From assembly GCA_000004985.1 (NCBI GenBank), contig GG738898.1: 64,000 nucleotides of DNA, one strand, 5' to 3'. Source of the stretch: Naegleria gruberi (Eukaryota). Below are positions 12,363 through 63,248 of this stretch, one piece after another. The translations under genes and the position numbers were made by a program. The number at the start of each line of letters is the position of its first letter. The stretch's first letter is position 1. The notes beneath the pieces are model-generated. The model saw only the letters and a list, made by a program, of their open reading frames with translations. It searched no databases and was not told the DNA's origin.

Positions 12363-13484
12363 ATGTTTCAAATTAATTCTAATCTTCCTCATCACGATCA
12401 TGATTTAGATGATCAAATTAACTCTGATATTAATTTTCCATCAGCATCATCATCTTTAAACTACTCATCAAATTCCTCCTCATCCACTACTACTTTTAAT
12501 AATGGTTATATTTCCAATTATATTAAAATTACAAATGGAGAATTAATAGAAATTCCCAAACCTAAATTAAAATTATATTCAAAACCAACATTTAATGAAT
12601 TACCAATTGAAATTATGTTAAATATATTAGATTATTTAAACATGTTAGAAATAATAGAAAGTAAAATACAATTTCTAAATAAGAATTGTTACATTTTATT
12701 AAATGAATTAGAATTTGAATATTCAAAAATATTTTATGAAAATAAATTAAAATATCTAAATAAGGAAGTATTTAATGAAAGTATTTATTTTAATAATACA
12801 ATTGATAATATTATATGTAAATGTATTTATATAGTAAATTTACCATTACATTGGTATATTTATCAATTAATTTTAAATAGATTTAAACAAATTGATAAAA
12901 TATTTAAGTATTTAATATCACAATCACCTGAATTAGGAAGATATTTAAATGGAAATTGTAATGAAATTAAAAAATTTAAACAATTTTCATTAAAATGTTC
13001 AAATTATTGTTTAAATAATTATAAAAATAATTTTAAATTTTTAAATAATTTTCCAATTGATTTTTGCCTTTCTTGGTTATTATATGATGGAGAAAGCCAA
13101 GGCTTTGAAATTGATCAATTTTATATAACAGGACAATGTAGATTAATGGGTTTAAAAGAAATTATTTTATATTTAAATGATGAATTATTACCAAATATAA
13201 CTATTAGTGCCAATGCTGGAATTTTTATTTATAATTTAAATATTTTAAATGGAAATATTGAATCTATAAAAGGATGGAATGTTTTAAAATATCCAAATTG
13301 GTTGGAATTTTTAAAAACAAGTAATAATTTAAATCAATATCAAATTTTAAATCAAAATAATAATACTATAAATGGTTTTATTAAAATTAAAAAACCAAAT
13401 AATATTTTAAAAAATATTGTAAAATTTTATTATGATGAAAAGAATATTAATTCAAATCTAGATGATTTTAATTTAAAATATTAA
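12363..13484 (+). CDS. Hypothetical F-box-like protein; very AT-rich (~85% AT) and Asn/Ile/Lys-rich.
   Basis: Contains 'FNELPIEIMLNILDYLNMLEIIESKIQF', which fits the F-box consensus. The ORF is single-exon. Confidence 0.55.
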   Translation: MFQINSNLPHHDHDLDDQINSDINFPSASSSLNYSSNSSSSTTTFNNGYISNYIKITNGELIEIPKPKLKLYSKPTFNELPIEIMLNILDYLNMLEIIESKIQFLNKNCYILLNELEFEYSKIFYENKLKYLNKEVFNESIYFNNTIDNIICKCIYIVNLPLHWYIYQLILNRFKQIDKIFKYLISQSPELGRYLNGNCNEIKKFKQFSLKCSNYCLNNYKNNFKFLNNFPIDFCLSWLLYDGESQGFEIDQFYITGQCRLMGLKEIILYLNDELLPNITISANAGIFIYNLNILNGNIESIKGWNVLKYPNWLEFLKTSNNLNQYQILNQNNNTINGFIKIKKPNNILKNIVKFYYDEKNINSNLDDFNLKY

Positions 13485-19939: not shown

Positions 19940-19999
19940 TTATTTAATTGATCTTTTGATTTTCTGCAAACTAGAAAGTCGTTGGTAATAGTCAAAAAA

Positions 20000-21403
20000 A
20001 TGGAAAAACACTCACCACAACTTAATTTATCGGAAACAAGGAAGAAACAAGATTTTAATGATGATACAATTTATGAAATTTTGTCTTTTTTTAATGATTT
20101 TAAATTTATTGTAATGAATTGTGCATTGGTGTCCAAGCAGTGGTTGAATGTTGTTTTATCATCATGTCGTCATCTTTCATTGGAATGTGGAAGAAGAGTT
20201 GGAATGGATGGCCAATTTTTACAAAATATTGCAACTCTAGAGATTAATACCACTTTTAATGATGATACTTACAAAAAACTGATCTTGATGAAATCACTAA
20301 CAAAACTAATTAGTTGTAACAATAATATTGGTGTTGAAGAAGCTAAATATATTAGTGAATTGAAACAATTAACTCATCTTTATATTTCTAGCAACAAAAT
20401 TGGTGTTGAAGGAGCAAAATACATCAGTGAATTGAAACAATTGACCAATCTTGATATTTCTTACAATAATATTGGTGCTGAAGGAGTTGAACATATTGGT
20501 AATTTGAAACAACTAACCTTTCTTTGTATTTATCACAATAATATTGGCGATGAAGGAGCTAAACATTTAAGCGCATTGAAACAATTGACTTATCTGTATA
20601 CTGCTTTCAATAATATTGGTGTTGAAGGAGTTAAATATATAATCAAATTGAAACAACTATCATATCTTAATATTTGTAGCAACAAAGTTGGTGATGAAGG
20701 AGCTAAATACCTTAGTGAATTGAAACAATTGACCAATCTTAATATTTCTAATAGTAATATTTGTGCTAAAGGAGTTGAACATATAACGGAAATGAATCAA
20801 TTAACCATTCTTAATATTTCCACCAATAATATTGGTATTGAAGGAGCTAAATATATTGGTAAATTGAAACAATTGACATGTCTTAATATTTATTACAGTA
20901 ATATTGATATTGAAGGTGCTAAATACATTAGTGAAATGAAACAATTGACCGATCTTAATATTTCCTACAATAACATTGGTATTGAAGGAGCTAAATATAT
21001 TGGTAAATTGAAACAATTGACATGTCTTACTATATATAATAATTACATTTGTGATGAAGGAGCTAAATACATTAGTGAATTGAACCAATTGACCAATCTT
21101 AATATTTATAGTAATAATATTGGTGATGAAGGTGCAAAATACATTAGCGAATTGAAACAATTGACCAATCTTGATATTTCTGTCAATCAAATTGGTGCTA
21201 AAGGAGTTAAATACATAGCAGAATTGAATCAATTAACCATTCTTTCTGCTTCTCTCAATAATATTCGTGATGAAGGTGCTAAATATATTAGCGAATTGAA
21301 ACAATTGACCAATCTTGATATTTCCAGCAATAACATTAGCATTGAAGGAGTTAAATGTTTTGAGGAAATGAAACACTTGACAGTTCTTGAAATTTACCAG
21401 TGA
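20000..21403 (+). CDS. F-box / leucine-rich-repeat (RNI-like) protein with ~15 tandem 24-aa LRRs.
   Basis: N-terminal F-box 'DDTIYEILSFFNDFKFIVMNCALVSKQWLNVV', then repeats 'NNIGxEGAKYISELKQLTNLDIS'. The ATG at 20000 gives 'MEKHSPQ'; the track start at 19982 is a non-ATG codon. Confidence 0.8.
   Translation: MEKHSPQLNLSETRKKQDFNDDTIYEILSFFNDFKFIVMNCALVSKQWLNVVLSSCRHLSLECGRRVGMDGQFLQNIATLEINTTFNDDTYKKLILMKSLTKLISCNNNIGVEEAKYISELKQLTHLYISSNKIGVEGAKYISELKQLTNLDISYNNIGAEGVEHIGNLKQLTFLCIYHNNIGDEGAKHLSALKQLTYLYTAFNNIGVEGVKYIIKLKQLSYLNICSNKVGDEGAKYLSELKQLTNLNISNSNICAKGVEHITEMNQLTILNISTNNIGIEGAKYIGKLKQLTCLNIYYSNIDIEGAKYISEMKQLTDLNISYNNIGIEGAKYIGKLKQLTCLTIYNNYICDEGAKYISELNQLTNLNIYSNNIGDEGAKYISELKQLTNLDISVNQIGAKGVKYIAELNQLTILSASLNNIRDEGAKYISELKQLTNLDISSNNISIEGVKCFEEMKHLTVLEIYQ
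20320..21390 (+). repeat. Tandem ~72-nt coding repeats (LRR units) inside the F-box-LRR gene.
   Basis: Near-identical 72-nt units with 'caattgaccaatcttgatatttc' recurring about 15 times. They generate the spurious antisense ORFs 20801..21232 and 21233..21457. Confidence 0.85.
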
Positions 21404-23210: not shown

Positions 23211-25079
23211 TCAATAATATTGATTTGCCTTATTTGAAATTGACATGCCAAACTTGTTAAAATCTTCAGGTGTGGAAATATCTGTAAACTTTTCAATATT
23301 ATTCTTTCCCAATAATGTCTTTACATGATCTTTCATCCTTTCATGCACATCATACCAAGCATGTTTATAGAGAACATTTAAATATTCTCGAAATGAGAAG
23401 GCATCCTCTTTTTGAGCGAGCATTCCATAGATTATAATAAATAGTTTGGCATCTATAATTGGAAGTGAAAATCTACTCAAAAATTGATCCATTAAATTAA
23501 ATTCGTACGGATAAGTATTATTTACAATTTGAATAATTAACTCTTTAACATTATTAATAATAAAAGTTTGATCATGTTCAGAAATACGTGACATTTCAAA
23601 TACTGACTGGTTTGGAAATAATACATTAAATGCTTTAAATGTTAATGCAGTGTCTTTCCTTAGTACATTCATTAATTTTGCAAAGAATTTACATTCTTCT
23701 TCTATTGCATAAATTGTTAATTGATATTTATCCATTAAATATCTAACTAATTCATGAATTTCTCGACAATTATCACAATTCAAGCATTTGATTGCTTCCT
23801 TAACTTGTTCCATTGGAAATGTGAAATTTCTTTCACTGGCAACCTTAAAGAAGTTAAATAAATTTCTAATATTTCCATTTTCCAATGAAACTATTTCAAT
23901 TGGGAATGGAAATTCTTGAAGGAATGTTCTGAGATATTTCTGACCTGTACTGTAAAGGGAAATAGTTTGAGAAATGGTAAATCCTTTTAATGGATTTTCA
24001 TAATACTTAATTATTTGATTCATCCCAATTAATTGATTTAAACATTTCATAAAATAATTAGTTTTCTTAAATAATCCTGTGGTTTTAAAACCTAGACAGT
24101 ATGATAGATAATCATCCTTCACATCTACTATTTCAACTCCATTTTTAATCATTTCTGTTGTAATCATTGGAATGTGTTTCTCATAGAATTCATATTTTTT
24201 GAATAATATCGATAAAATAGAAATTGGATATTTCAATTTGTAAAATGTAAATAATTTTTCTATAAAGTCATCCGAATATTCAATAAATTGATCCAATTTA
24301 GGGAGTTCTTCAAGTATTAACTCAAATAATTTCCCCAATTTCGAATAGTCCAAATATTGATTCATTCTAATAATCTTTCCAATACACTCTCTAATTAAAT
24401 TCGTTTCTTCTGGAACGTACTGTCTCATATATGGAGATCTTTCAATATTCTTACATAATAAAACTTGCATAAATTGATAAATCACCAAATCATAATAATA
24501 AAAACTATCACCAATGGATATGAACTTTTGAACCGCAGCAGAATAGAAGGAAATTACTTGATTTTTCATTAATTTCTTGAATTGGGTATTTTCTAAATTG
24601 TTTTCTACTCGTTTCATTCTCAAATTCTTTGCTTCTCTTTCCAATTCTAAATTTCTCTTCACAAGTGACAATAATTTAGATATTACAATGGGACGGAAAT
24701 GAGTGTCACTACTGGAATATGATGGTTGGGGTAGAGAATTTATCAAAGAATACACAACTTGCATCCTCTCTTTCATATTCTTTGTTTTTTCAAGATTGTA
24801 AATTATTCCACTGTTAGTATCTTTAATTTTGTAAACATTTTGTAAAGCATTACAACAATTAATTAAATGTTGTATTAAAAATCTTTCAAATACCATCTTC
24901 CAAAATGTTTCACTTTTATCCAACTGTAAATTCCACTCCCTACAAACAACCAAAACATTTGGAATTTCATGAATCGGAAGAAATTCCACCACACTATTCA
25001 ATTCATCATAAGAAATTAATAATATTTGTGATGAGTGAGTTATTGTTTCTAATTGATCGTTAGTTTTGCGGTTAGACAT
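23211..25079 (-). CDS. Hypothetical protein of 622 aa with a weak N-terminal F-box-like motif.
   Basis: 'LISYDELNSVVEFLPIHEIPNVLVVCREWN' near the N-terminus; the rest is helical with no known motif. Confidence 0.55.
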   Translation of the reverse strand: MSNRKTNDQLETITHSSQILLISYDELNSVVEFLPIHEIPNVLVVCREWNLQLDKSETFWKMVFERFLIQHLINCCNALQNVYKIKDTNSGIIYNLEKTKNMKERMQVVYSLINSLPQPSYSSSDTHFRPIVISKLLSLVKRNLELEREAKNLRMKRVENNLENTQFKKLMKNQVISFYSAAVQKFISIGDSFYYYDLVIYQFMQVLLCKNIERSPYMRQYVPEETNLIRECIGKIIRMNQYLDYSKLGKLFELILEELPKLDQFIEYSDDFIEKLFTFYKLKYPISILSILFKKYEFYEKHIPMITTEMIKNGVEIVDVKDDYLSYCLGFKTTGLFKKTNYFMKCLNQLIGMNQIIKYYENPLKGFTISQTISLYSTGQKYLRTFLQEFPFPIEIVSLENGNIRNLFNFFKVASERNFTFPMEQVKEAIKCLNCDNCREIHELVRYLMDKYQLTIYAIEEECKFFAKLMNVLRKDTALTFKAFNVLFPNQSVFEMSRISEHDQTFIINNVKELIIQIVNNTYPYEFNLMDQFLSRFSLPIIDAKLFIIIYGMLAQKEDAFSFREYLNVLYKHAWYDVHERMKDHVKTLLGKNNIEKFTDISTPEDFNKFGMSISNKANQYY

Positions 25080-28499: not shown

Positions 28500-29448
28500 T
28501 TATTGCCTCTTATATTTAATGATATATTCAGGATAACATTGATATCTATCATAAACAATTAATTCTCTATATGCACTATTTGATGCATTTGAGTTTCCAA
28601 TTACACTATCAAAGACTCTTCTGTTAGTACCGTTAATTTCTGGAGGTCTTCTTTCATTTGTCATTCTTTTAGGTGTGTAATAGATTTGTCTTCCCAATAA
28701 AACTCTGCATAAGAATAGAGAATATTCATTATTTCGATCTGGAGTACAATATTGATCACTTTTAGAACAATATTCTGCAAAATAAACTCCAGCTCCAAAT
28801 AAACCTCCCAAACTTGCAACTCTTTCATCAAATCCATGCTCTGAAATGCTTGAAATAAATTCTGGTTTTGTTCCATGCCATAAATATTTTTCATTCATTC
28901 CACCATTCAATCCAACTGTTTTCATCCACTCAAAGGATTTACTTGTTTTTGCTAATTGTTCTGTTTGAACTTGGATTGAGTTCAGGGGATCTTGATAAGA
29001 TGTCAAATGATTCATTCTTGATTTATATGAAGTGAAAAGTGATGCATTTTCAATTCTTGAAACACTTGAAACAACCATTTTGGAATAGTTCATTCTCACT
29101 TGTTGATCTCTTCCACTTCCAAGAGTTGTTGAATTACAAGAAATATCAATTACACCTTGAATAGTATTCTTCAAATATTTTGTAACATCCACAATGTAAT
29201 ATCTTTTAGAATAGGATGTAAATGTATTTCTCTTCCAATAACTTGGCAAGACAATATTCAATTGTTTGGATTTAGATTCTTCCAAATCCATTTCCATTGT
29301 TTGTAATTTCTTTTCCTTAATTTTCAATTTGCTGATTTGATTGGAAATTTCTTCTCTTTTTTTGACACTTTGATTGGTGAATTCTTTTGTTTTCTGTTCA
29401 AGATTCTTAATTTTTTCTTGAAGATTGAGTTTATCTTGATTAAAGATN
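28500..29448 (-). CDS. Poly(ADP-ribose) polymerase catalytic-domain protein, C-terminal part. It continues 5' through the gap at 29449-30718, and the likely N-terminal 'MSLVSSEDLFYSL...' lies at 30859..30719.
   Basis: H-Y-E PARP signature: 'LWHGTKPEFISSISEHGF', 'GAGVYFAEYCSKSDQYC', 'LFLCRVLLGR', 'YRELIVYD'. The upstream part is coiled-coil 'NQDKLNLQEKIKNLEQK'. Confidence 0.82.
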
Positions 29449-31419: not shown

Positions 31420-32510
31420 ATGCGTCAATTACGTGTATCAATATCTCAACCTCAACAAGTTGTTGTGCATCGACCTTCTTATCAAACTCTTCCTCCTAAA
31501 CAATCAGTCATCAATAAGAAGAGAGATCGAAATGTTTTATTGATGGAATATTATTCATCAGCCTATATTCGACCTAGTAAATATTTGCTATTAAGCAGAG
31601 AGGATGTTGAAGAAACTGGTGATGAAGACAATATTTCTTCTCATCATCAGGAAGAAACTAATTTGAATGAAAGTCTTCTCGTTTACACTAATATTGAACA
31701 AGAATCAGCTTTAAATAGAAGAGGTCTGTTGCATGTTGGTGAAGATTGCCTTTCGATTATTGCCAAGTACATGCGAATAGATGAAATGTACACATGTATA
31801 CAAACATGCAAAGCTTGGGGAAGAATGTTACTTCCCACCTTTATGTTATTATCAGAGGAAACTTTAGAATATGAAGAACACTTGCTGGACTTACTCACCT
31901 ATGGTTTGAAAGTGGACAATAATCCATTGGATTTTGCTTCAGAAGGAGTGTTTTCTGAGCATGCTACATGGAAACCACATTTATGTTATCTTGAACAACA
32001 AGAAGTTGCACCATTCGAAGGAAATTTTGAAGAGGAAGAGGTCGTAGAGCATAAAGATTTACAAATTTGTAGGATTAATCTTCCCTTTGGTAGTCCTCTA
32101 TGTAAGGGAACAATAACAGAACAATTCGAATTGATACAAGATGAAGTAAATGTAGATAGCTATCGGGAGGTGGTGAATGAACATCTTGGTATTCCAATAG
32201 AAGAACAATGAAGTTATGAATTTACTCCTTTCGTATTCTATGATGAGATTAAGAGGGAGAAGGAAATGATGCTTCCCTATGTTAAGGAAATTCAACAATC
32301 ACTGATTGCTCATTATGAAGATCATTATAATGAGATGACCAATGAACAGAGATCTTCTCCCTCAATGACATTTTATGGATTAAGACTGGGTATTATGCAT
32401 CTCTTAAAGAGAGGAGGTGTAATGTTCTTTGAACCCAATGTAGTTGAAGATGCTCTCTATCAATTAAAAGCAATCATTTATTTGGTAATTAAGGAAGCTT
32501 ATGAAAGTNN
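31420..32510 (+). CDS. Hypothetical F-box-like protein (31420..32211, possibly continuing in 32266..32510 before the gap).
   Basis: 'LLHVGEDCLSIIAKYMRIDEMYTCIQTCKAWGRMLLP' fits the F-box consensus; the 3' structure is unresolved. Confidence 0.5.
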
Positions 32511-41286: not shown

Positions 41287-41344
41287 ATTATGCAATAATT
41301 CACCAATTTGACACTCTACCAAAATGGGTATACTTTTTGTGATT
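41287..41344. repeat. Second copy of the 3' end of the ARF-like gene (identical to 44137..44183), abutting the gap at 41345.
   Basis: 'tcaccaatttgacactctaccaaaatgggtatactttttgtgatt' occurs at both sites. At 44140 it encodes '...KKYTHFGRVSNW*' of the BTB-ARF gene. Confidence 0.8.
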
Positions 41345-42043
41345 NNNNNNNNNNNNNNNNNNNNNNNNNNNNNNNNNNNNNNNNNNNNNNNNNNNNNNNN
41401 NNNNNNNNNNNNNNNNNNNNNNNNNNNNNNNNNNNNNNNNNNNNNNNNNNNNNNNNNNNNNNNNNNNNNNNNNNNNNNNNNNNNNNNNNNNNNNNNNNNN
41501 NNNNNNNNNNNNNNNNNNNNNNNNNNNNNNNNNNNNNNNNNNNNNNNNNNNNNNNNNNNNNNNNNNNNNNNNNNNNNNNNNNNNNNNNNNNNNNNNNNNN
41601 NNNNNNNNNNNNNNNNNNNNNNNNNNNNNNNNNNNNNNNNNNNNNNNNNNNNNNNNNNNNNNNNNNNNNNNNNNNNNNNNNNNNNNNNNNNNNNNNNNNN
41701 NNNNNNNNNNNNNNNNNNNNNNNNNNNNNNNNNNNNNNNNNNNNNNNNNNNNNNNNNNNNNNNNNNNNNNNNNNNNNNNNNNNNNNNNNNNNNNNNNNNN
41801 NNNNNNNNNNNNNNNNNNNNNNNNNNNNNNNNNNNNNNNNNNNNNNNNNNNNNNNNNNNNNNNNNNNNNNNNNNNNNNNNNNNNNNNNNNNNNNNNNNNN
41901 NNNNNNNNNNNNNNNNNNNNNNNNNNNNNNNNNNNNNNNNNNNNNNNNNNNNNNNNNNNNNNNNNNNNACATTTATCGTGTTCTGATTTCTAGAAAAAAC
42001 GAATGATATTGATTTACTGAAAGATTAATATTATTATCCAATA

Positions 42044-43296
42044 TTGTGATTTCGGAAAACCCTTTTCCTTTTTTTTTTGAATTTTTTCAAGGTTTGTTTG
42101 AATTGCTTCGGATTGGTTTGAATTGGATTGAATTGCATCAGATTTGAAAAAAATTTGGCTGCCCGAATTAACTGATAGAGTGTATGTGAATGGAAAAGGT
42201 TTGGCAGACGAAGAGATTCAATTAATTAAATATAAATATGACAATTATCTGCTAATAATATACCTCCACACAAAATTGCTCGTCTTATTCGAGTGGAAAC
42301 CTTGTTTTCTCTTCCGACGATTAGAAAATATATGGAAAACCAAGAAAAATCAAAACCAGGTCGTCCAAGGTATTCTGGAAAATCTACACAATTGAATATG
42401 TTGGCCTTTATTAAAACTTGTTTTGAAATTATGCCCACTCTTTATCTGCAAGAGTTGCAACAATCTATTAAGGAAATATTTGGAAATGAGATATCATTAT
42501 CTCAATTATCGGATGTCAAAACCAAGATTTTGAATATCACTAACAAGAAAGTGGAATTATTAAGTAATTATCGGAAAAAACCTCATATTCAACAACATAG
42601 AAAACTTTACAGAGAATTGGTTCTTGGTTTCGAAATTGATGATTTGTTTTTCATTGACGAGTCCACTGTTACATACACCGATCTAGCAAGAAGGAGAGGT
42701 CACTCATTAAAAGGAACACCTGCAAGGAACTCATCTCATCATGTTTCGAATAAGAGATTTTCAATTATTGCTTGCATCAATAGATTGGTTGGAGTAGTTT
42801 ATTGTGAAGTCATTGATACAACCGAAAAAGGAGTGGATCAAATTATCTTTTCAAACTTCATGGATACTTTGAAACATTTAATTCCAAAAGACAAAGTGTG
42901 TGTTATGGACAATAGTTCAGTTCATAATAAGGAAACTTTGGTTGATTCCATGAAGGAAGCTGGAATACATGTTCTATTTCAAAGTAGATATTCACCAGAT
43001 TACACTCTAATTGAATTTTGTTTCTCGTGGTTGAAAAGTGAACTGAAAAGAGAAGAATATATAACGTACCCATTGGCTTTCTTGGTGAAACAAACCTTTG
43101 ATAGTATGCCAGTGGAAATTGTTCGAAAATATGTTGGACACGCCCAACAGAATTGGAAATCCAATAGATTGTAAGTTAAAATAAAGTTTGTTTTATTTGA
43201 TTGAATTGGTTTGAATTGGTTTGTATTGGATTTTGTTGGAAAAAAAATTGCAAAAAAATTCAAAAAAAAAAGGAAAAGGGTTTTCCGAAATCACAA
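42044..43296. mobile_element. Tc1/mariner-superfamily (DD34E) DNA transposon of 1253 bp with a TA target-site duplication (42042-43 and 43297-98). It has ~44-bp terminal inverted repeats plus subterminal 'GGTTTGAATTGG' direct repeats. The transposase gene is frameshifted.
   Basis: Left end 'TTGTGATTTCGGAAAACCCTTTTCC(T)nGAATTTTTT' equals the reverse complement of the right end '...GGAAAAGGGTTTTCCGAAATCACAA'. The internal ORF encodes an HTH 'KPGRPR' and the DDE core 'FFIDESTV', 'VCVMDNSSVHNK' and 'YSPDYTLIE', with 34 residues between the second D and the E. Confidence 0.85.
42329..43174 (+). CDS. Tc1-like transposase; probably a pseudogene.
   Basis: The N-terminal HTH segment 'MKKIWLPELTDRVYVNGKGLADEEIQLIKYKY' (42144..) is out of frame with the main ORF near 42240-42265, and there is no GT..AG to rescue it. 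Confidence 0.7.
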   Translation, partial: YMENQEKSKPGRPRYSGKSTQLNMLAFIKTCFEIMPTLYLQELQQSIKEIFGNEISLSQLSDVKTKILNITNKKVELLSNYRKKPHIQQHRKLYRELVLGFEIDDLFFIDESTVTYTDLARRRGHSLKGTPARNSSHHVSNKRFSIIACINRLVGVVYCEVIDTTEKGVDQIIFSNFMDTLKHLIPKDKVCVMDNSSVHNKETLVDSMKEAGIHVLFQSRYSPDYTLIEFCFSWLKSELKREEYITYPLAFLVKQTFDSMPVEIVRKYVGHAQQNWKSNRL

Positions 43297-43459
43297 TAGC
43301 CTTCATAATTTTAATATCAAAATTCAATCCGAGAAGAATAATTTTAATATTACTGACTCTTCTAATTGGGAAATATCAGGAAATACTTTTAATGTTGGCG
43401 CTTATACTACTACTGCATTCAATTTATATTACTTATTAGTAAATAATCAAGAATTGATG

Positions 43460-43801: not shown

Positions 43802-44139
43802 GAACAATTTATTGTTTAGGTATAGTATTGAAACTATCTCCCTTCACATATGTATGGATCCACCAAAATTTCCAGAGTTGTTTTTAAAAATTGAAGAAGA
43901 GATTTTACATTATTTTCCCTTATCATTTCCTCCCACTAGGGCTATGGCTCCTCTCAATATCATTCAAGTTTTCTGTAAATGATCATTATAGACAGTGTGC
44001 GAAGGAGCAGTCACACCATTAGAGACAACTCTAAGAAGAATGCATTGAGTGGCGAGAAAGATAAAACACAAACCGAGGATTAGTCTCATTTTTTTAGATA
44101 ATTATCAAATTATTGGCATTTACAAAGATGTTGCACAAA

Positions 44140-46108
44140 TCACCAATTTGACACTCTACCAAAATGGGTATACTTTTTGTGATTGATAAGGAGTTTAGGA
44201 AAACCCACAGCTTTCTCAACTGTCTGAATTGCCCATTCCAAACCATCAGATAGACCTAGACCAGTAATTGCACAACACGATTGAACATACCATTTTTGCC
44301 TAAATGTATGTAATTTCAGCAGTGAAACCAATTCAACACGACTCATAGATGTAGATATATCTTGTTTGTTAGCAAACACTAGAATAGGACAATTTTTGAG
44401 CTCATCATCTTTGAGTATTCTGTTTAGGTCATCAGTTGCTTCCTGAAGTCTCTGTCTATCATTCGAATCCAGCACGAACAGTATGCAGTCAGTATTGCTC
44501 AAGTAATGTTTCCAAACCTTTTGTGGACTTCGGTTCTTTTCATTCCCGCCAATATCCCACTAGAATTTTAAAAGTAAATTTCAAATATTTTCCAAAAACC
44601 TCAACTTACAATGCAAATTTCAGCAGTGCCACGTTCCAAGGTTTCAACATTGAAGCCAATGGTGGGTGTCTAAACGAAACTAATTAATGAATAGATTAAA
44701 TTTCACTTACAGTAACTCCAGGTTCTCCACTTTTAAATTGGTTTAGAATTGTGGTCTTACCAGATGAATCAAGGCCAAGTAATAGGAATCTAAGCTTTGT
44801 ATTAATATAATTAACCTTTTCAGGAATTTTTTGAATGAGATATTTCTTCCAAAGCTCATCAGGTATGACACGTTCTTTCCTAAACATGTAAATGTGTAAC
44901 AGATCCTGTATCTCTTCAATCAAGCTCTCAAATTGTGGCATTGACTTTCTAATTCCAATAAATATGAGACAGAATGAGTAGAGGATTTCGTAATCACACA
45001 AACTCCAATCATATTTCCTCAATAATCCATATGCATCTTTGAATCTATTTTCAATATCTTGAAGCATCCACATTACTATATATGCCATTTTGTTTCCTTC
45101 CACTTTAGAAAAATGAGGAGAATCTATCAAACCTTCAAATAATTCCAATGGAAGTGATGAAACAATCTTTAACACAGGTACATATAATAGTGCTAATAGT
45201 AATTGAGTTAACTTTTTTGAAATCATGATATTATCAAGGAATGGATAATACTTAATAAGTAATTTTGGATTTTCCATGTATTTCTTTTCATCCTCATCAT
45301 TTGCATATTCCAATTTCTCTCCACGATATACTGTATCAGAAATAACACATGATGAATTATAACCCAACATGTAGCAAACCTTAGGTATGATAATATCCTT
45401 GCAATCAGCTGAAAATTCCAAACATCTGAGTCCAATAGTGAGGGCATTGAATTGATTTACAACTCGTGAAATAGCTCTGATTAAACTTTCAATTTGATAT
45501 TCGTCAGCAATTTTCAATAATTCCAATAAATCTTTCCATCCAATAATTCTTGCATCATTTTCATTGAATAATCGTTTAGAAAGTCCTAACTTTCCTACGT
45601 GAATAAATTCAATCACCATTTCAAAATAATCACACCACGATTTTTCACAATTTTGTAAAGTCATTTCGTTTGATTTCGACTCGGCCATTTCAATATTTAA
45701 CATTGCTTCAAAAACCTTGCTTTCCAACATGATTAATTCTCTAGAAACCAATAATTTCTTTCTAATTTCAGGTATGTGAATTGTAAAATAAATAGTTTCT
45801 TTCTTAGTTTCTAATAGATTAAACTTTTTAATTAGAAAACTATTCTCTGAATCATCATGACATTGCTCAACTTTAAACAAATCATGATAAATTTTCGGAG
45901 AGTTGTTGTTAGCTGATGTCAATTGATCCTCTTCATCTCTCATCAAGTAGTAATACATTGAATTTTGGACCTTTCGAATAGCAACTTCATTGTGTTGGTC
46001 ACTGAAAAAGCCATCTTCCAATCCACTTCCTTCTTTACAGTACCAATGTGACCACGAATCCAATAGAAATTCATCATCATTCATTTTTTCAATTATGAAA
46101 TTGATCAT
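44140..46108 (-). CDS. BTB/POZ-domain N-terminal region (~440 aa) fused to an ARF/ARL-family GTPase. Exons (minus strand) are 46108..44711, 44669..44610 and 44559..44140; introns are 44710..44670 and 44609..44560, both GTAAGT..TAG.
   Basis: BTB-like 'IYFTIHIPEIRKKLLVSRELIMLESKVFEAMLN'. The ARF motifs are G1 'LLGLDSSGKTTIL', 'T|PTIGFNVETLERGTAEICI|WDIGGNEKNRSPQKVW', 'LVFANKQD' and 'CAITGLGLSDGLEWA'. Switch II is DIGGN rather than DxGGQ. Confidence 0.8.
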
Positions 46109-46275: not shown

Positions 46276-46512
46276 CTAATCCGATCCACCAAGGAGACGC
46301 AACACCAAATGAATAGTAGCATCCTGTCTGACACCATACTCATTCAAAGTTCTATCATCTTGCATTTGTTTACCAGAGTAGATGAGTGATTGTGATTCAG
46401 TTTTGATTCCCTCCTTCATAAAGATCTTTTCCTTCAGGTGAGAAACTCTATCATTACCTTCAACTCTCAGAGCAATGGTTTTGGAGGTGATACTCTTTAC
46501 GAAAATGTCCAT
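46276..46512 (-). CDS. Divergent ubiquitin-like protein (78 aa) ending in LRLLGG-SD.
   Basis: 'MDIFVKSITSKTIALRVEGNDRVSHLKEKIFMKEGIKTESQSLIYSGKQMQDDRTLNEYGVRQDATIHLVLRLLGGSD' has the ubiquitin beta-grasp pattern (about 35-40% identity to ubiquitin by eye) with a di-Gly before a 2-aa tail. Codon usage is biased to ttc/atc/aag/ggt. Confidence 0.75.
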   Translation of the reverse strand: MDIFVKSITSKTIALRVEGNDRVSHLKEKIFMKEGIKTESQSLIYSGKQMQDDRTLNEYGVRQDATIHLVLRLLGGSD

Positions 46513-46658
46513 CTTGTTATTTGTTTTGTTTTTTTTGAGTTTGTTGATTTCAAGTTGGAAACACATTTGCGACTTTTTATTGGAATTTTTTGGTTCTATT
46601 GCGCGGTGGAAGCGAAATTTCGTTTTCTGTGGTTTTCAGGATTTTGTAAATTTTACCT

Positions 46659-47552
46659 TCACCAAATGAACTTTTCAAAGTCGAGTTTGTGGTTTGTGAA
46701 TTGGGAAGTAAGTGGTTTGTTGGTAAATGAAAACTCTCTAAAAGAAACTTCCGGGTCCATGTAACTAATTGCCTTCTCAATGATAATATCCCATTCATCG
46801 TTCGTTAGTTTCAATTCTTTCAAAGTTATTGATAATTCAGCATTTATGCCATCATTGCTATGTTTTAAATATAACTGAGTCCAAGTTGAAAACCTTACCA
46901 TTCCTAGCTCTCCAAACTCAATTTCAAAACAATGACCTTTATAGGCATACAAACCAATGTTGTCTCCCTCGTCATAGTCAAATCTTGTAATTTTTGGGAT
47001 GGCATTCGAAAAGTTTTCTGACTGTTGATCGATTTTACTCAGCTCAGCTTTGAAAATTCCAGTCTTTTTGCTGTTAAAAACGAACTCAATTTCTTTTTCA
47101 ACTTTCCCAAATACTAAAGTTACAGCGTTTTTTGCAAACTCACCGACAATAGCTTTATCAGCCAATGAATAGGAATTGACTTTAAAGGAATGATTAAGCT
47201 TAATAAGCATGTTATAAACTATTCCGTAAGGTGTGTTTTTCCAAACTCTTCTAAATTGCTTAGAAACTGACGAAACACTGATTGTGCATTCTGAAGGGAG
47301 ATAATTCAATATTTCTTTAACAACTTCATCTGGCTGATTACCTAAAAGTATGGCCATTCTGTTGCAAACCGGTACGGTTTCTTCTTCTTGTTTTTGTTTC
47401 TTACAGTTATTTTGCTCACTTTCGGAAATGTATTTTCGTTTAAAACCATTAGTTTGCTCTTCTTCTAATGAACCAACATCCGTTTCATATTCTTCCCTTA
47501 ATACACAATCATCATTCATATTACTTTGCTCGACCTTTGCAAATTTGGACAT
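46659..47552 (-). CDS. Hypothetical F-box-like protein, paralog A of a tandem pair.
   Basis: 'ILNYLPSECTISVSSVSKQFRRVWKNTPYGIVY', 'QSENFSNAIPKITRFDY', 'FEIEFGELGMVRF' and 'NDEWDIIIEKA' are shared with 47606..48430. Confidence 0.65.
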   Translation of the reverse strand: MSKFAKVEQSNMNDDCVLREEYETDVGSLEEEQTNGFKRKYISESEQNNCKKQKQEEETVPVCNRMAILLGNQPDEVVKEILNYLPSECTISVSSVSKQFRRVWKNTPYGIVYNMLIKLNHSFKVNSYSLADKAIVGEFAKNAVTLVFGKVEKEIEFVFNSKKTGIFKAELSKIDQQSENFSNAIPKITRFDYDEGDNIGLYAYKGHCFEIEFGELGMVRFSTWTQLYLKHSNDGINAELSITLKELKLTNDEWDIIIEKAISYMDPEVSFREFSFTNKPLTSQFTNHKLDFEKFIW

Positions 47553-47605
47553 TTTTTTAAAAAAATAAAAGGAATCTGATATATTTAGTTGAAGAGCTGA
47601 TGATA

Positions 47606-48430
47606 CTATGGTATTTCCAATTCATGCCCAGTAAATACTGATTTACCCATATCATCGTAATAGTCAAAGTCCTCAAACTCTTGACATGAATCAATATAAT
47701 CACTTGCTTGTCCAATAATTATATCCCATTCTTCATTTGTTAACTCTAAACCTTTCAGTTCTGCAGATATTCCATGATAGGAAGAACCCTCTTCATACTT
47801 GCTATATGGATCCCATCCCCAAAATCTAACCATTCCCAGTTCTCCAAATTCAATTTCAAAGCCAGCAGCTTTACACACAAGTGTTCCATAGTCCATTTTG
47901 CTTGTTCTTTCATAATCAAATCCAGTAATTTTTGAAATGGCATTTGAAAAGTTTTCTGACTGTTTTTTGGTTTTTCTTAGTTCACTAATTAGCCGATCTG
48001 CCTTTCGTAAATGAAATAAATTCTTCTTTTCTCTTTTATATTGATCCATTACTCCTAAAACAATTTCTTTTGTAAATTTTCTACAATCAACTTTGTCATC
48101 CAATGAATAAGAATGTTTCTTAAAGGAATAGTTCAATTGAATGACCATGGTATAAACTATTCCATGAGGAGTTTGTTTCCAAGCTCTTCTAAATTGTTGA
48201 GAAACGCTCGAAGCTTGAATCGAAGATTTGTAATTCATAAAGTTTAGTATTTGTTCAATAATTTCATCTGGTTGACTTCCGAGAAGTGTTTGCATTCCTA
48301 AATATTCCTTTTTGCTTTTCTTGTAATACGAATATTCATGTTTAAAAACATATTTTCTTTTTGTGGTTTTTTCTTGCTCATACGAATAGTCGTCAGAATC
48401 GCTCGAGCATGATGAATCACTTTCAGACAT
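47606..48430 (-). CDS. Hypothetical F-box-like protein, paralog B of the tandem pair.
   Basis: 'ILNFMNYKSSIQASSVSQQFRRAWKQTPHGIVY', 'QSENFSNAISKITGFDY', 'FEIEFGELGMVRF' and 'NEEWDIIIGQA'. Confidence 0.65.
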   Translation of the reverse strand: MSESDSSCSSDSDDYSYEQEKTTKRKYVFKHEYSYYKKSKKEYLGMQTLLGSQPDEIIEQILNFMNYKSSIQASSVSQQFRRAWKQTPHGIVYTMVIQLNYSFKKHSYSLDDKVDCRKFTKEIVLGVMDQYKREKKNLFHLRKADRLISELRKTKKQSENFSNAISKITGFDYERTSKMDYGTLVCKAAGFEIEFGELGMVRFWGWDPYSKYEEGSSYHGISAELKGLELTNEEWDIIIGQASDYIDSCQEFEDFDYYDDMGKSVFTGHELEIP

Positions 48431-48485
48431 TTTTTAAAGATATTCGCAAAATTTAATAATTATAATTGAAAAATAGTTCTAAAAA

Positions 48486-48519
48486 TGGAGTCATAGGGAA
48501 TCGAACTAGACCTTCTGCA

Positions 48520-48550
<31 letters not shown>

Positions 48551-48556
48551 AACCCC
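48486..48556 (-). tRNA. tRNA-Ala (anticodon UGC), Pol III gene with a T5 terminator immediately downstream at 48485..48481. The T-arm is atypical.
   Basis: Minus strand 5'-GGGGTTA TA GCTC AGTTGGTA GAGC G TCTGC TTTGCAT GCAGA AGGTCTAGTTCGATTCCCTA TGACTCC A-3'. The acceptor has the Ala identity pair G3:U70. The D-arm and anticodon arm match eukaryotic tRNA-Ala. The T-arm as written gives only a 3-bp stem, so it is either a sequence error or a pseudogene variant. Confidence 0.75.
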
Positions 48557-48825
48557 TCATTATAATTGCTTATAAATTGTGTATTTGAGTAACATTAAAG
48601 ACAATGTCCATACCCAGAACTTGTTTTGAGCTTGCAACTTTTGAAAGTATTAAAAAAATAATCACAACTCATGCATGCTCCTTTAAAATATTGGAATTTC
48701 GAATCCTGTTCTTCATAGAAGATCTAAACTAGAACATGTTCTGAGAATTTAATGAGAATAATTTAATTCTCAATCGCTAAGACTTTAAATGCTGTTCACA
48801 CATTCGAATAAATCACATAAAAAAA

Positions 48826-49869
48826 ATGACTCAAGTCAACCAAGGTTATACTGATCATTCATTCTCCGATGATGTTTGCTATGAAATATTGTCCTTCCTG
48901 GGTGATGATTGGAAATTCGTATTGACGAAATGTACATTAATTTCAAAACAATGGTTAGAAGTTATCAAGCAAAGATCAAAACTTTCTGCATGCTTCAGCA
49001 ATCCGAAGGTCAACCGTGTGATGGAAAAGGGATTTTTACATTATTTCGTCAAGATTAAGTTTAAAAGCGTTTATAAACTAAATGATGAATGGTTTGATGT
49101 TTTTGAAAAGATGAATCAATTGACTGAGCTTCAAATTGATTGGGTTAGAGAAATAGATTTGAAAAGAATTGTTGATTTGAAACAGTTGACAAAGCTTTCT
49201 GTTTGTTCTTGTACTGAAGATGTGGAACAGGTTAAACTTATTGGTGAAATGAAACAATTGACTGAATTGAAAATATCTTCCAACAAATTTGGCGATGAAG
49301 GAGCAAAAATTATTGGTGGAATGACACAGTTGACTAAATTAGAAATTAAAAGTAACAGAATTGGAAAATTGGGTGCAAAAGCATTGTGTAATTTGAAAGA
49401 ACTGAAAGAACTACGTATCTCTGAGAATGCTCTTGGAGCAAGTGGAGCCAAATCAATCAGTCAATTGAAACAATTAACCACCCTCACAATTGATTACAAT
49501 CAATTGGGTCCAGAAGGAGCCAAAGCAATTAGTGAAATTCCAAACTTGACCAATTTGAGTATATGCAGCGATCAGATAGGTGCTGCAGGTGCTAAATCAA
49601 TAAGCAAAATGAAACAATTATTAACACTCAGTGCAGATGGAAACGCTATTGGCGATAAAGGAGCAAAGGCAATTGGTGAAATGAAACAATTGACCAGTCT
49701 TCATCTTAGTTTCAATCATATTGGTTTTGAGGGTGCTAAAGCAATTTCTGAGCTTAAAAACTTGAGATATCTCAATATGACAACCAATCCGCTCAGTAGT
49801 GAAGGTGCTCAATTACTTCAAAATATGAAATTGCCAAAACTTATAATTGATTTCAAATTTCAAAATTAA
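48826..49869 (+). CDS. F-box / LRR (RNI-like) protein, paralogous to 20000..21403.
   Basis: F-box 'DDVCYEILSFLGDDWKFVLTKCTLISKQWLEVI', then repeats 'NxIGxEGAKAISEMKQLTxL'. Confidence 0.8.
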   Translation: MTQVNQGYTDHSFSDDVCYEILSFLGDDWKFVLTKCTLISKQWLEVIKQRSKLSACFSNPKVNRVMEKGFLHYFVKIKFKSVYKLNDEWFDVFEKMNQLTELQIDWVREIDLKRIVDLKQLTKLSVCSCTEDVEQVKLIGEMKQLTELKISSNKFGDEGAKIIGGMTQLTKLEIKSNRIGKLGAKALCNLKELKELRISENALGASGAKSISQLKQLTTLTIDYNQLGPEGAKAISEIPNLTNLSICSDQIGAAGAKSISKMKQLLTLSADGNAIGDKGAKAIGEMKQLTSLHLSFNHIGFEGAKAISELKNLRYLNMTTNPLSSEGAQLLQNMKLPKLIIDFKFQN

Positions 49870-60104: not shown

Positions 60105-61460
60105 ATGTTTAATTCAATATCGGCCAATGATGATTTTATGAATTCTTTAATGACTGGAGAGGAGGAAACGTTTACGAGTAGTGGGAGTGCTGGTCAGCAT
60201 CGAAATAGATATTTGGAAAAGTCGAAACAGAGCAAATCACCAACAATGAATTCTTCATCACCTTCATCATCACCTAAATTACAGGATTCAACAAATAGAC
60301 GATATACAATGACACCTGGTGGTCAACCAAAGTTAGCTTCTGAGATGGTTCCTATTCCATCTTCCCGAAATACGAATTACGGAAGAAGATTGAGATATAA
60401 TTTGTTTGGAACATCTGCTCCATCGAATGGAATGGATAGTAATAATTCGAATATGAGTTCGCAACCACCAATTGACTCATTACCAGAACAACAAATTTCT
60501 AATTCTGTTGCAACTTCTGTAATAAGCAGAACCAACAGTTTGTACAGTAATAATAGTACACAAGTACCTTATAATCCTATCGAGTTCCAAATTGAAAGAG
60601 AAAATCTCACTTTTAATACTGATCAAGAAGTGCCCAGGTTTAAAATTGGCATTTTTGGACGAAATTCTTCCATATTTACAATTCTATTTGTTCTTCACCT
60701 TAAAAGTGAATGGTATTACATGGATGGAAAGTTAAAATCGACGGATTCATTTAGATTGGATCCCACTTCTGACAGCTTTATATCAACAAGGCCAATTATG
60801 AATCCAATAGAATCTGATGAAAATGAATTAGCACTTGTTTCGTTGGAATGGATTGATATGTCTCCTACACATAACCAATACCAACTAAAGGATACTGAAG
60901 GATTCGTGTATGTTTTAGATATTGGTTGCAAAGTAAATGGTGAAGAATATTTGCCAAAGAGTTTTGAGGATCAATTACGAGTTGCAATTCAGTACTTGCA
61001 AACATATATCAAGAGGAGAATAATGAGGAATAACAAGAACGAAAATTTTGAGGAATTTGAGGAACCAGTTGTGTTCTTGTGTTATCATGACGAGGATTTG
61101 TACAATTTGAGAGAGGAAGAATTAAACAATTCTCTAGATAAGAGAAATTCTATAATAATGACAAATGAAGACGATTCACCATTAGAAGAAAGCGCCAGGT
61201 CTATAAATATTCGAAATGCAATTCAAAAAACCTTAAACGAACAAATACCACTCAAGTTAAAGAATACCAAAGTTTATGTTCAGGAGGCTAAAGATCACAA
61301 ATCCATAGGATCCTTCATAGACAATAGTTTCGCCTTTCTTGCAAGCGAAATTACATTATCCAAATTCATGAATGAACACAAAGCGAAAAATGGCCAAAAT
61401 TCAATATCATCTTTCTTTGCCTCTAGTAGAGACGAGGAAGTTTCAGATAATCTATTGTAA
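60105..61460 (+). CDS. Hypothetical protein of 451 aa with an S/N-rich N-terminus.
   Basis: Single ORF whose 3' end overlaps the stop of the convergent DUF4116 gene by 9 nt. Confidence 0.5.
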   Translation: MFNSISANDDFMNSLMTGEEETFTSSGSAGQHRNRYLEKSKQSKSPTMNSSSPSSSPKLQDSTNRRYTMTPGGQPKLASEMVPIPSSRNTNYGRRLRYNLFGTSAPSNGMDSNNSNMSSQPPIDSLPEQQISNSVATSVISRTNSLYSNNSTQVPYNPIEFQIERENLTFNTDQEVPRFKIGIFGRNSSIFTILFVLHLKSEWYYMDGKLKSTDSFRLDPTSDSFISTRPIMNPIESDENELALVSLEWIDMSPTHNQYQLKDTEGFVYVLDIGCKVNGEEYLPKSFEDQLRVAIQYLQTYIKRRIMRNNKNENFEEFEEPVVFLCYHDEDLYNLREEELNNSLDKRNSIIMTNEDDSPLEESARSINIRNAIQKTLNEQIPLKLKNTKVYVQEAKDHKSIGSFIDNSFAFLASEITLSKFMNEHKAKNGQNSISSFFASSRDEEVSDNLL

Positions 61461-63248
61461 ATTATTTAAATGTGGAATCTTTTCCTTAAGCAAGTTGTAA
61501 ACCTCTTCATTCTTCATGAACATGGTTGGAAGGTGTAGATAAATATATTTTTCAATATCAGCAGGAGTGTTGTGTTGGAGTGCCTTAACAACAAGTTCTG
61601 AGGTAAGAAAATTGTAAGGAATAATCTTGAAATTAGTTGGTTCAGTAATTGCCAATTTGATAAAATCTGTATCTCTCTTTTGATAAAAGTCTAACCCAAC
61701 ATATAATTTTGGCTGGGCTGTCAATATCTTGATAATATTCTCTTTTGAAGTAAATTTTTCTGGAACATCTATCCATCTATATTGCATATGCTGCAAAGCA
61801 ATTATAACCATCTCAAGAGTTAATATCTCTTCCTTAATCATTGAAAGAATTGAAGGACTACAATTATATCCTTGAGAGAGAGCCGTCATTACTAGATCTG
61901 GAGTTTGGTGCACATATGAAATTGTTGCTGGATTAGTCATCACAAGATGCTGAATCATGTTATCACTCAAGTAAACATCCTTAGGCAGTATTTTCAACAA
62001 CTCTACTCCATATTTGTTATTTGCTAATTTCATTAATACATCCTCGTCCAGAAGTAATGACTTATCAACACAAGAAAGGTCAAGTTTTTGCCCATAAAAA
62101 TTTCTAACTAAACTCAGTAATTCCAATATGAATTGTTTGTTTGATCTCAGTTTAGGACTTATTAAGGGGAATGCCGAAGTGTGTACTTGTAAGAGTAATA
62201 GAGCTTTAGGATAATCATGGCAAAACAAATAAAGTGTTTGATCGGGTATATAATCAAAGTTCGAAAAATAGGTACCTCCTTTTTGGATCATTGAGTTTAA
62301 TGTTGTTGTTAACACTTCAACATCAACTTTCAAAGATTCAGGAAGGGATTTGTAAAGAGAGCCACGATCATGGAATACTAATTTGAGAGCTACCTCCTTA
62401 TCCGATTTCAATCTATCAGAAATAATGTTAAAGAGAATCAAGGTATTGTTATAAGTTATTGATTCCAATATCAAGCTCTTGTCGTCACTAACTTCAAAAG
62501 GCACTGTTGCACTAAAGCTGTAAGTAATATTTTTGAAAGTTGTCAACACAATATCTCTATCCTTCTTGAGTCTTTCCGAGATGAATTCATATTTGCGATA
62601 GGAAGATTTTACAGCACTAAGTGCTATTTCCTTATCGTCTTTGAAGAGGGGTGATATTTTTGATATACACAGTCCATTTTTCACTGCCTCTAAGCAAATA
62701 TCACGATCCTCTTTCAAGTTGTCAGACAGGGACAGATAAGTATTGCATGTCTTTTGAATCATATTCAATGCATATTCTTTGTTCTCTATTATTGACTTGG
62801 GAATGAATTCTACAACAGAAAGAGTAGGCATCTCCTCCATTCTGAACGGCTTGGATCTGATAGTCTCTTGTGCAATTTCTGTTCCTTTCACTCTTTCAGA
62901 ACAAAATCTAACAGTAAGAGGATGCATAAGCAGAATGTCTTTCATAAATATTTCGTCATCTTTGATTTCATCTGAAGCATATTGAATAGCATCTAAATAA
63001 TTTGACACAGCTGCACAAACAATATCTCTATTATTCCTTAGTTCTTTGGAAACATATTTCAATTGACTCCCATTATTCCTTAAATATTTCAACACAAATT
63101 CGGGATCATTCTTCTTTTCTTCAGTTGCGAACCTGATAGGCTCTCGTTTCGGTACAATTTTGAGATTCAACTTTTGTTGTGGTAATAGACTTTTGAACCA
63201 TTTCTTCATGTTACCTAACTTGTTAAATGAATAATTCTCGAATCCCAT
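61452..63248 (-). CDS. DUF4116 repeat-containing protein whose N-terminus is in the terminal gap at 63249-64000.
   Basis: Tandem ~30-aa repeats of the DUF4116 type: 'LKYVSKELRNNRDIVCAAVSNYLDAIQYASDEIKDD', 'DNLKEDRDICLEAVKNG', 'ERLKKDRDIVLTT' and 'DRLKSDKEVALKLV'. Confidence 0.65.
   Translation of the reverse strand: MGFENYSFNKLGNMKKWFKSLLPQQKLNLKIVPKREPIRFATEEKKNDPEFVLKYLRNNGSQLKYVSKELRNNRDIVCAAVSNYLDAIQYASDEIKDDEIFMKDILLMHPLTVRFCSERVKGTEIAQETIRSKPFRMEEMPTLSVVEFIPKSIIENKEYALNMIQKTCNTYLSLSDNLKEDRDICLEAVKNGLCISKISPLFKDDKEIALSAVKSSYRKYEFISERLKKDRDIVLTTFKNITYSFSATVPFEVSDDKSLILESITYNNTLILFNIISDRLKSDKEVALKLVFHDRGSLYKSLPESLKVDVEVLTTTLNSMIQKGGTYFSNFDYIPDQTLYLFCHDYPKALLLLQVHTSAFPLISPKLRSNKQFILELLSLVRNFYGQKLDLSCVDKSLLLDEDVLMKLANNKYGVELLKILPKDVYLSDNMIQHLVMTNPATISYVHQTPDLVMTALSQGYNCSPSILSMIKEEILTLEMVIIALQHMQYRWIDVPEKFTSKENIIKILTAQPKLYVGLDFYQKRDTDFIKLAITEPTNFKIIPYNFLTSELVVKALQHNTPADIEKYIYLHLPTMFMKNEEVYNLLKEKIPHLNNLQ

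Follow-up and report, generated by a model that had tools for sequence, protein, structure and literature searches.

A probable lineage-restricted ubiquitin paralogue, apparently lacking a gene model, in Naegleria gruberi

The stretch of 64,000 nucleotides analysed here, hereafter the window, belongs to contig GG738898.1 of the Naegleria gruberi assembly GCA_000004985.1 and carries on its minus strand a small gene for a ubiquitin-like protein (UBL). The analysis favours, with some confidence, the reading of UBL as a lineage-restricted, divergent paralogue of ubiquitin in N. gruberi, made as a stand-alone precursor of 78 residues and left without a gene model. This reading is built on the intact coding sequence, the predicted fold, the strength of selection on the protein, and its position relative to ubiquitin and NEDD8.

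Gene structure, fold and conservation

46276-46512, minus strand: UBL (ubiquitin-like gene), 78 codons plus a TAG stop; coding part 46279-46512, stop 46276-46278
46513-46658, minus strand: spacer of 146 bp from the stop of F-box paralogue 1 to the UBL start, holding an upstream ATG at 46564-46566

The open reading frame (ORF) of UBL is intact and encodes MDIFVKSITSKTIALRVEGNDRVSHLKEKIFMKEGIKTESQSLIYSGKQMQDDRTLNEYGVRQDATIHLVLRLLGGSD, a one-domain precursor, with start and stop codons of its own, that begins with MDIFVK and ends in HLVLRLLGG-SD. The Pfam ubiquitin model PF00240 matches it with E=3.9e-26 and a score of 91 bits (cutoff 25.4) over profile positions 1-71 of 72. The intact ORF and this match bear out the preliminary description of the locus, in which a beta-grasp protein of 78 residues ending in LVLRLLGG-SD had been proposed. 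Among proteins of solved structure, the closest matches are ubiquitin chains, at about 80 bits for one domain. The AlphaFold2 model (predicted local distance difference test, pLDDT, 87.2) follows the strand and helix order of ubiquitin, with strands at 2-7, 12-16, 41-45 and 66-71, a helix at 23-34 and a disordered tail, and by using it in Foldseek all top matches were ubiquitin (1ubq, template-modelling score, TM, 0.95; root-mean-square deviation 0.8 Å). As modelled, UBL has the ubiquitin beta-grasp fold. No second ubiquitin-like coding sequence was found in the 64-kb window by tblastn. The stand-alone beta-grasp domain, the Gly-Gly end and the short extension beyond it are arranged as in the precursors of modifiers that undergo processing.

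The longest ORF over UBL has 96 codons and reaches 18 codons upstream, to the ATG at 46566. This longer form was discarded as the true gene on the evidence of a strain contig, L002, 96.8% identical to the window over 932 nt, in which a 1-nt deletion in a run of A puts the ATG at 46564-46566 out of frame with MDIFVK. In addition, no in-frame start lies upstream in the relative P0002, a protein of 77 aa that is identical to UBL at 56/76 positions (74%) and ends in LVLRVLGGH. Because the indel breaks the upstream frame and the relative has no such start, translation was placed at MDIFVK.

UBL is under strong purifying selection. Between UBL and P0002, the non-synonymous divergence (dN) is 0.18 and the synonymous divergence (dS) is 1.9, which is saturated, for a dN/dS of 0.09. 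Within the lineage of N. gruberi, the gene differs from its counterpart in L002 at 1/237 nt (stop TAG to TAA) and at 0/78 residues, while the remainder of the alignment holds 29 differences, from which about 9.9 would be expected in UBL (Poisson P=5.5e-4); over the same contig, 9/182 residues of F-box paralogue 1 are changed. The P0002 gene is known from two contigs or haplotypes (L001 and L040), whose copies differ by seven synonymous changes and by no non-synonymous change, with a downstream flank that is 87% identical. In both lineages Gly-Gly is retained and followed by one or two further codons (SD or H) before the stop. The GC content at third codon positions (GC3) is 0.41 in UBL, 0.24-0.32 in the neighbouring genes and 0.50 in the ribosomal protein gene uS17, a weak hint that UBL may be appreciably expressed.

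Taken together, the constraint, the kept Gly-Gly and stop, and the GC3 value all but exclude a pseudogene and indicate that the C-terminus is in use. A decaying ubiquitin retrocopy whose frame stayed open by chance, for which the apparent lack of a gene model and the divergence at the functionally important S42, L74 and Q63 might be invoked, is scarcely credible against this dN/dS, the want of any amino-acid change in two independent within-lineage comparisons whose flanks diverge by 4-13%, a GC3 above that of the neighbours, and a model that folds with high confidence.

The annotation status of UBL was deduced from accession order and from the database sources of the matches. Exact N. gruberi NEG-M protein matches in the window are EFC39565 (HSP70), EFC39568, EFC39569 (uS17), EFC39626 (F-box) and EFC39627, all five on one scaffold of 310,422 bp. 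Neither the UBL protein nor any sequence sharing words with it occurs in the NCBI, UniRef or EukProt N. gruberi sets, its only occurrences being on ENA metagenome contigs, and the extended form of 96 aa is likewise absent from the protein databases searched. The minus-strand models are numbered by position, from EFC39617 (7.9 kb) to EFC39626 (47.6 kb) and EFC39627 (52.2 kb), and a single accession, EFC39625, lies between EFC39624, assigned to the BTB-ARF gene, and EFC39626, which is F-box paralogue 2. Since this sole intervening number is needed for F-box paralogue 1, UBL apparently has no model in the N. gruberi reference annotation.

Relation to ubiquitin, NEDD8 and other ubiquitin-like proteins

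Canonical ubiquitin is the closest sequence match of UBL, with which it is equal in length and alignable without gaps; BLASTP gives 40/76 identical positions (53%), so that the 35-40% put forward in the preliminary description was an underestimate. Against human NEDD8 the identity is 35/77 (45%). Ubiquitin-type residues are found at F4, T12, L15, V17, K29, I30, R54, L56, T66 and R72, and NEDD8-type residues at V23, E28, Y45, S46 and M50, the segment LIYSGKQM (43-50) being identical to that of human NEDD8. UBL differs from ubiquitin at 36/76 positions and is unlike both proteins at 34; at 16 of these 34, ubiquitin and NEDD8 are themselves identical, including G10S, P19G, P37K, P38T, Q40S, R42S and R74L. 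The hydrophobic patch I44, H68 and V70 is retained, with I8 in place of L8, as are L71, R72, L73, the Gly-Gly at 75-76 and lysines 6, 11, 27, 29, 33 and 48. Positions 63 and 65 are changed (K63Q, S65A). Ubiquitin contacts its activating enzyme (E1) through three arginines, of which UBL keeps R72 and has S42 and L74 in place of the other two. After Gly-Gly, UBL continues with SD and a stop, and P0002 keeps GG-H.

Canonical ubiquitin is nearly invariant (more than about 95%) across eukaryotes and is encoded as polyubiquitin or as fusions to ribosomal eL40/eS31. UBL departs from it in its 53% identity, in the loss of R42, R74 and K63, and in its gene, which encodes one free-standing unit extended by Ser-Asp instead of polyubiquitin or a ribosomal fusion. 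Nor is it the organism's own ubiquitin, because Naegleria ubiquitin differs from the human protein at only about three residues (PMC9741609).

The relation with NEDD8 was addressed with a neighbour-joining tree (500 bootstraps, 76 columns) of ubiquitins, four NEDD8/Rub1 sequences and divergent ubiquitin-like proteins, for which the ISG15 C-terminal domain served as outgroup; no Naegleria NEDD8 was among its members. Of the reference sequences used, that of ubiquitin agrees with the solved chain, and that of human NEDD8 scored 153.7 bits over its full length against PDB chain 1ndd_A. UBL and P0002 formed a clade with 98.6% support, a NEDD8 clade excluding both received 97.8%, and NEDD8 grouped with UBL and P0002 in 6.6% of the replicates. 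The phylogeny that the preliminary description had proposed therefore places UBL outside the NEDD8 clade and apart from canonical ubiquitin. Position 72 is Arg in both UBL and P0002, in place of the Ala72 that defines NEDD8. Judged by its sequence, UBL is neither canonical ubiquitin nor NEDD8.

A highly diverged N. gruberi orthologue of NEDD8/Rub1, the modifier that UBC12 and the NEDD8 E1 attach to cullins, would explain the shared LIYSGKQM and the other NEDD8-type residues, and would fit a single-domain protein whose precursor carries a short C-terminal extension beyond Gly-Gly and which stands at a similar distance from ubiquitin (NEDD8 44/76, UBL 40/76). This reading is nevertheless very improbable. 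Besides the low identity and the rarity of the joint grouping, UBL is without the NEDD8 residues K4, E12, E14 and E31/E32, having T12, A14, F31 and M32 at the acidic positions, and position 72, where it has Arg, discriminates most clearly between the two E1 enzymes, as the A72R substitution abolishes the adenylation of NEDD8 by its own E1, while R72A in ubiquitin permits it (PMC12355090). Moreover, since Naegleria has cullins (PMC9928731) and CSN5 (PMC7531848), one would expect N. gruberi to encode a conventional NEDD8 at some other locus; a separate Naegleria NEDD8 sequence was not found in papers or supplements, which report the cullins and CSN5 alone.

Relatives of UBL were sought through two word-indexed searches, with UBL and with a truncated two-sequence profile, of 5.8 billion proteins, and only three sequences were returned. 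P0001 is UBL itself, on an ENA metagenome contig. P0002, from a 5.8-kb contig of 42% GC, has 18 derived residues in common with UBL and, as far as the sequence can tell, is a true relative; the organism that carries it probably falls outside the Naegleria species sequenced so far, and for its Rab3GAP-like neighbour no close homologue was found in the protein database. The third, P0003, is 57% identical to UBL and was rejected as a member of the family. Its contig, L003 (ENA metagenome, GC 25%), holds at 126-628 two genes of 79 codons, 23 nt apart, of which the first encodes a near-canonical ubiquitin (MTQQIFVK...LRLRGGN) and the second the divergent P0003, ending in LRLLGGN. P0003 is identical to the adjoining ubiquitin at 51/76 positions versus 43/76 for UBL, and, because it also shares with this neighbour the unusual MT- start and -GGN end, it was read as an independent tandem duplication. 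Nine derived residues are common to P0003 and UBL (A14, N20, L26, E28, K37, Y45, G60, R62 and L74), and these would be convergent if P0003 descends from the adjoining gene, an origin that the common ends suggest. An exhaustive HMMER search with UBL gave 29,193 representatives at E<=1e-3; the 150 matches listed were all polyubiquitins or multi-domain ubiquitin-like proteins with at least four ubiquitin-type repeats, and were uninformative on nearer relatives. As far as the data show, UBL is restricted to N. gruberi-like amoebae and one relative lineage.

The C-terminal tail was also followed on its own, by scanning the codon-level pattern GKQ...HL[VA]LR[LVF]LGG. The scan matched 3 viral and 33 metagenome contigs, none of them close to UBL, with giant-virus ubiquitin-like proteins, ubiquitin-S27a fusions and others among the matches. 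The LVLRLLGG end had been regarded in the preliminary description as the signature of a conjugatable modifier of the Ub/NEDD8 type. As a family signature it was abandoned: since LLGG occurs across unrelated lineages, it is a recurrent substitution and diagnostic of no family. Proteins with LLGG or R74L are carried by the giant-virus contigs L004-L006, L014, L015, L032, L033 and L035 and by the metagenome contigs L013, L020, L022, L024-L026, L028 and L031; the giant-virus proteins include both LRLLGG and LRLFGG ends, and R74L is also seen, in certain uncultured eukaryotes, in ubiquitin-S27a fusions that are canonical in other respects. R74L thus appears to arise repeatedly and to be tolerated even in the ribosomal fusion gene.

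In their general form, the divergent ubiquitin-like proteins of protists and giant viruses resemble UBL, being stand-alone, of about 76-80 residues, with 50-60% identity to ubiquitin and one or two residues after Gly-Gly. Several from giant viruses and metagenomes share its R74L (LRLLGGV, LRLFGGY, LRLLGGN), but they fall outside the clade of UBL and P0002 in the tree. The Dictyostelium "NEDD8-like" proteins are another lineage-specific divergent case. An origin of UBL in giant viruses was considered and dropped, the viral scan with a family-alignment query having recovered just ordinary viral ubiquitins, identical to ubiquitin at 69/76 positions and to UBL at 37-41/76.

The F-box-rich neighbourhood

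44140-46108, minus strand: BTB-ARF GTPase fusion gene of at least two exons, with an intron near 44503-44695; its start lies 167 bp downstream of the UBL stop
46659-47552, minus strand: F-box paralogue 1, 297 aa, F-box at residues 74-107 (Pfam F-box 29.1 bits, cutoff 20.5)
47606-48430, minus strand: F-box paralogue 2, 274 aa, exact match to EFC39626/D2VU48, "FBOX domain-containing protein" (Pfam F-box 28.9 bits)
48826-49869, plus strand: gene with F-box-like domain and RNI-type leucine-rich repeats (LRR), 347 aa (LRR_6 E=1.7e-30; N-terminal F-box-like match E=0.03, below threshold)
10893-11969, minus strand: sub-threshold F-box (E=1.2e-3, 19.1 bits)
12363-13484: sub-threshold F-box (E=0.01)
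19982-21403: sub-threshold F-box (E=1.7e-3)
23211-25079: sub-threshold F-box (E=1.5e-3)

The neighbours that had been described for UBL, namely a BTB-ARF gene, two tandem F-box paralogues and an F-box-LRR gene, are all present. In the BTB-ARF gene, the BTB domain was matched with E=1.5e-6 and the Arf domain with E=4.3e-6 and 1.2e-26 on its two ORFs; this association of a small GTPase with a domain of the Cul3-adaptor type recalls RhoBTB, but with ARF as the GTPase. We infer that the gene is EFC39624, which belongs to the "ADP-ribosylation factor" orthogroup OG0000639 together with two further N. gruberi proteins and orthologues in N. fowleri and N. lovaniensis (PMC9928731 Table_5). The two F-box paralogues stand in tandem with 45% mutual identity, and the C-terminal part of the first has no Pfam match. 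The gene at 48826-49869 is 43% identical to that at 19982-21403, N-terminus included, and its place in the plus-strand accession order suggests that it is EFC39567. The orthogroup containing EFC39567, OG0000031, comprises at least 33 proteins of N. gruberi, whereas N. fowleri and N. lovaniensis contribute none (PMC9928731 Table_5), in support of an LRR family that has expanded in this lineage specifically. The expansion envisaged in the preliminary description thus stands for the LRR/F-box-like family of 48826-49869; the text of Grau-Bove 2015 gives no Naegleria F-box figures.

It had also been stated that at least eight F-box-like genes lie in the window. Two exceed the Pfam threshold, five are sub-threshold and one candidate, at 31420-32211, gave no Pfam match. 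The five weaker matches score 14.5-19.1 bits (E=0.001-0.03, with E-values computed for a library of 24,736 models), all at the expected N-terminal position, and, because these values are library-wide and the F-box hypothesis was specified beforehand, they are probably real, divergent F-boxes. The count would therefore be two firm, five probable and one unsupported, or seven F-box or F-box-like genes in the 57 kb of non-gap sequence, out of about 33 gene models. One of them lies in an intron-split gene at 10294-11969 on the minus strand, a fusion of Kelch repeats, F-box and Ras/Rab-like GTPase. The trypanosome protein TbFRP (FYVE-F-box-GTPase) was described as a combination unique to its authors' knowledge, found in Euglenozoa only and with no N. 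gruberi orthologue (PMC3593210); the fusion at 10294-11969 is a different F-box and GTPase architecture in another discoban.

This setting had led to the proposal that UBL may be a dedicated modifier; tied to the local cullin-RING adaptors, it would be part of a module co-evolving with the BTB-ARF gene, the F-box paralogues and the F-box-LRR gene. The arrangement has its appeal, since BTB-ARF, UBL and the two F-box paralogues are consecutive minus-strand genes separated by spacers of only 167, 146 and 53 bp, in a region with so many F-box genes, and the order F-box 1/UBL/BTB-ARF is kept in L002, although at 96.8% identity this conservation is uninformative. The sole divergent relative of UBL does not share the arrangement. 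In both L001 and L040 a Rab3GAP-like gene adjoins P0002, no recognisable F-box or BTB gene was found among the ORFs of the locus within 2 kb upstream and 3.6 kb downstream, and none of its other ORFs has a tblastn match in the window. Furthermore, the F-box genes of the window comprise at least four unrelated architectures, the adjoining F-box 1 evolves fast while UBL is invariant, and gene neighbourhood in eukaryotes is a weak predictor of shared function. A co-evolving module is thus quite improbable. Because N. gruberi is rich in such genes and the neighbours of the relative are different, UBL most likely lies next to F-box and BTB genes by chance. A fusion of UBL to BTB-ARF by splicing was also considered and found unlikely, given that both lineages stop one or two codons past Gly-Gly and that the spacer between the two genes varies from 167 bp in the window to about 101 bp in L002.

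Beyond these genes, the window contains 14 runs of N (assembly gaps), and its real sequence has a GC content of 30.7%; the bins of very low GC are due to the runs of N and not to biology. A Tc1/IS630-type element at 42042-43298 is bounded by perfect inverted repeats of 46 nt (42042-42087 and 43253-43298) and encloses a DDE_3 transposase ORF at 42293-43174 (Pfam E=2.8e-19). Accession order makes EFC39566 the probable identity of this ORF; the orthogroup of EFC39566 has multiple copies in N. lovaniensis. A 48-nt direct repeat, 98% identical, is found at 41297-41344 and 44137-44184, 2.8 kb apart; the first copy abuts the assembly gap 41345-41968, the second overlaps the 3' end of BTB-ARF, and the pair may come from duplication in the assembly or from a segmental event around the transposon. 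On the minus strand, 61452-63248 encodes a protein with five DUF4116 repeats (Pfam E=1.2e-50), and 28500-29327 a PARP catalytic-domain gene (E=7.8e-26) broken by an assembly gap.

Putative activation and significance

UBL is probably a processed, conjugatable modifier. In the mechanism proposed here, a protease of the ubiquitin C-terminal hydrolase type would trim Ser-Asp from the precursor and expose Gly76, after which UBL would be adenylated and thioesterified by a ubiquitin-type E1 and not by the NEDD8 E1, a choice suggested by Arg72, which excludes the conventional NEDD8 enzyme. Arg42, Arg72 and Arg74 of ubiquitin contact the crossover loop of UBA1 (PMC12355090), and, because R42S and R74L remove two of these three arginines, activation would be weaker or altered. 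Two UBA1-family E1 genes are present in every Naegleria genome (OG0000389; EFC43131 and EFC48865 in N. gruberi; PMC9928731 Table_5), which leaves room for a preferred E1, and one of the two could be dedicated to UBL. Once charged, UBL would be attached to lysines as a variant modifier incapable of K63-type chains, owing to Q63, while the kept I44 patch and the six lysines would let it bind receptors and form chains through positions other than 63. Since position 74 is Leu, tryptic conjugates would carry an LLGG remnant (+340.211 Da) instead of GG.

The same loss of two E1-contacting arginines, along with the retained I44/H68/V70 receptor-binding patch, would suit a protein that is never activated by an E1 and acts as a non-covalent binder of ubiquitin receptors, a decoy or regulator. 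This alternative is rather unlikely, as Gly75-Gly76, Leu71, Leu73 and Arg72 have been kept in two lineages whose synonymous divergence is saturated, and a stop one or two codons past Gly-Gly in both is expected only if the C-terminus is in use.

Some points weigh against regarding UBL as a lineage-restricted, divergent ubiquitin paralogue of the conjugatable kind. Its clade is known from just two lineages; because polyubiquitins and other multi-repeat proteins filled the results of the HMMER search, remoter members may have escaped notice. S42 and L74 make activation by a standard E1 uncertain, and the reference annotation apparently did not call the gene.

A bolder proposal, and a long shot, is that Naegleria-type heteroloboseans possess a third conjugatable ubiquitin-type modifier, with its own enzymology and a surface that evolved away from the targets of bacterial effectors. 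Gln40 of ubiquitin is the target of the effectors Cif, CHBP and MavC, and Arg42 is that of the Legionella SidE effectors; UBL has Ser40/Ser42 at these positions and P0002 has Glu40/Ser42. Under this proposal UBL might be charged by one of the UBA1-family E1s, by analogy with the charging of FAT10 by UBA6 in vertebrates, and, if it were true, a bacterivorous amoeba would hold an "effector-proof" ubiquitin. UBL resembles FAT10 and other UBA6-dependent modifiers in being an extra modifier of the ubiquitin type, possibly with a second UBA1-family E1, and pseudogene-encoded ubiquitin variants such as UbKEKS illustrate the same concept. However, FAT10 is a tandem di-domain protein with a CYCIGG tail and, beyond the fold, has no sequence relationship with UBL, and the E1 assignment drawn from this likeness is only a lead.

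Because divergent single-copy ubiquitin-like proteins are common in protists and giant viruses, and because the tie to the F-box genes fails, the reading of UBL as a divergent ubiquitin paralogue represents an incremental advance. It adds a conserved gene of the ubiquitin family, apparently absent from the reference annotation of a model heterolobosean, that would escape catalogues of ubiquitin-like modifiers and standard diGly proteomics in Naegleria, including work on the pathogen N. fowleri. If UBL is indeed conjugated, it would constitute a natural experiment in which the E1-contacting positions R42 and R74 have drifted while R72 and Gly-Gly have stayed in place.

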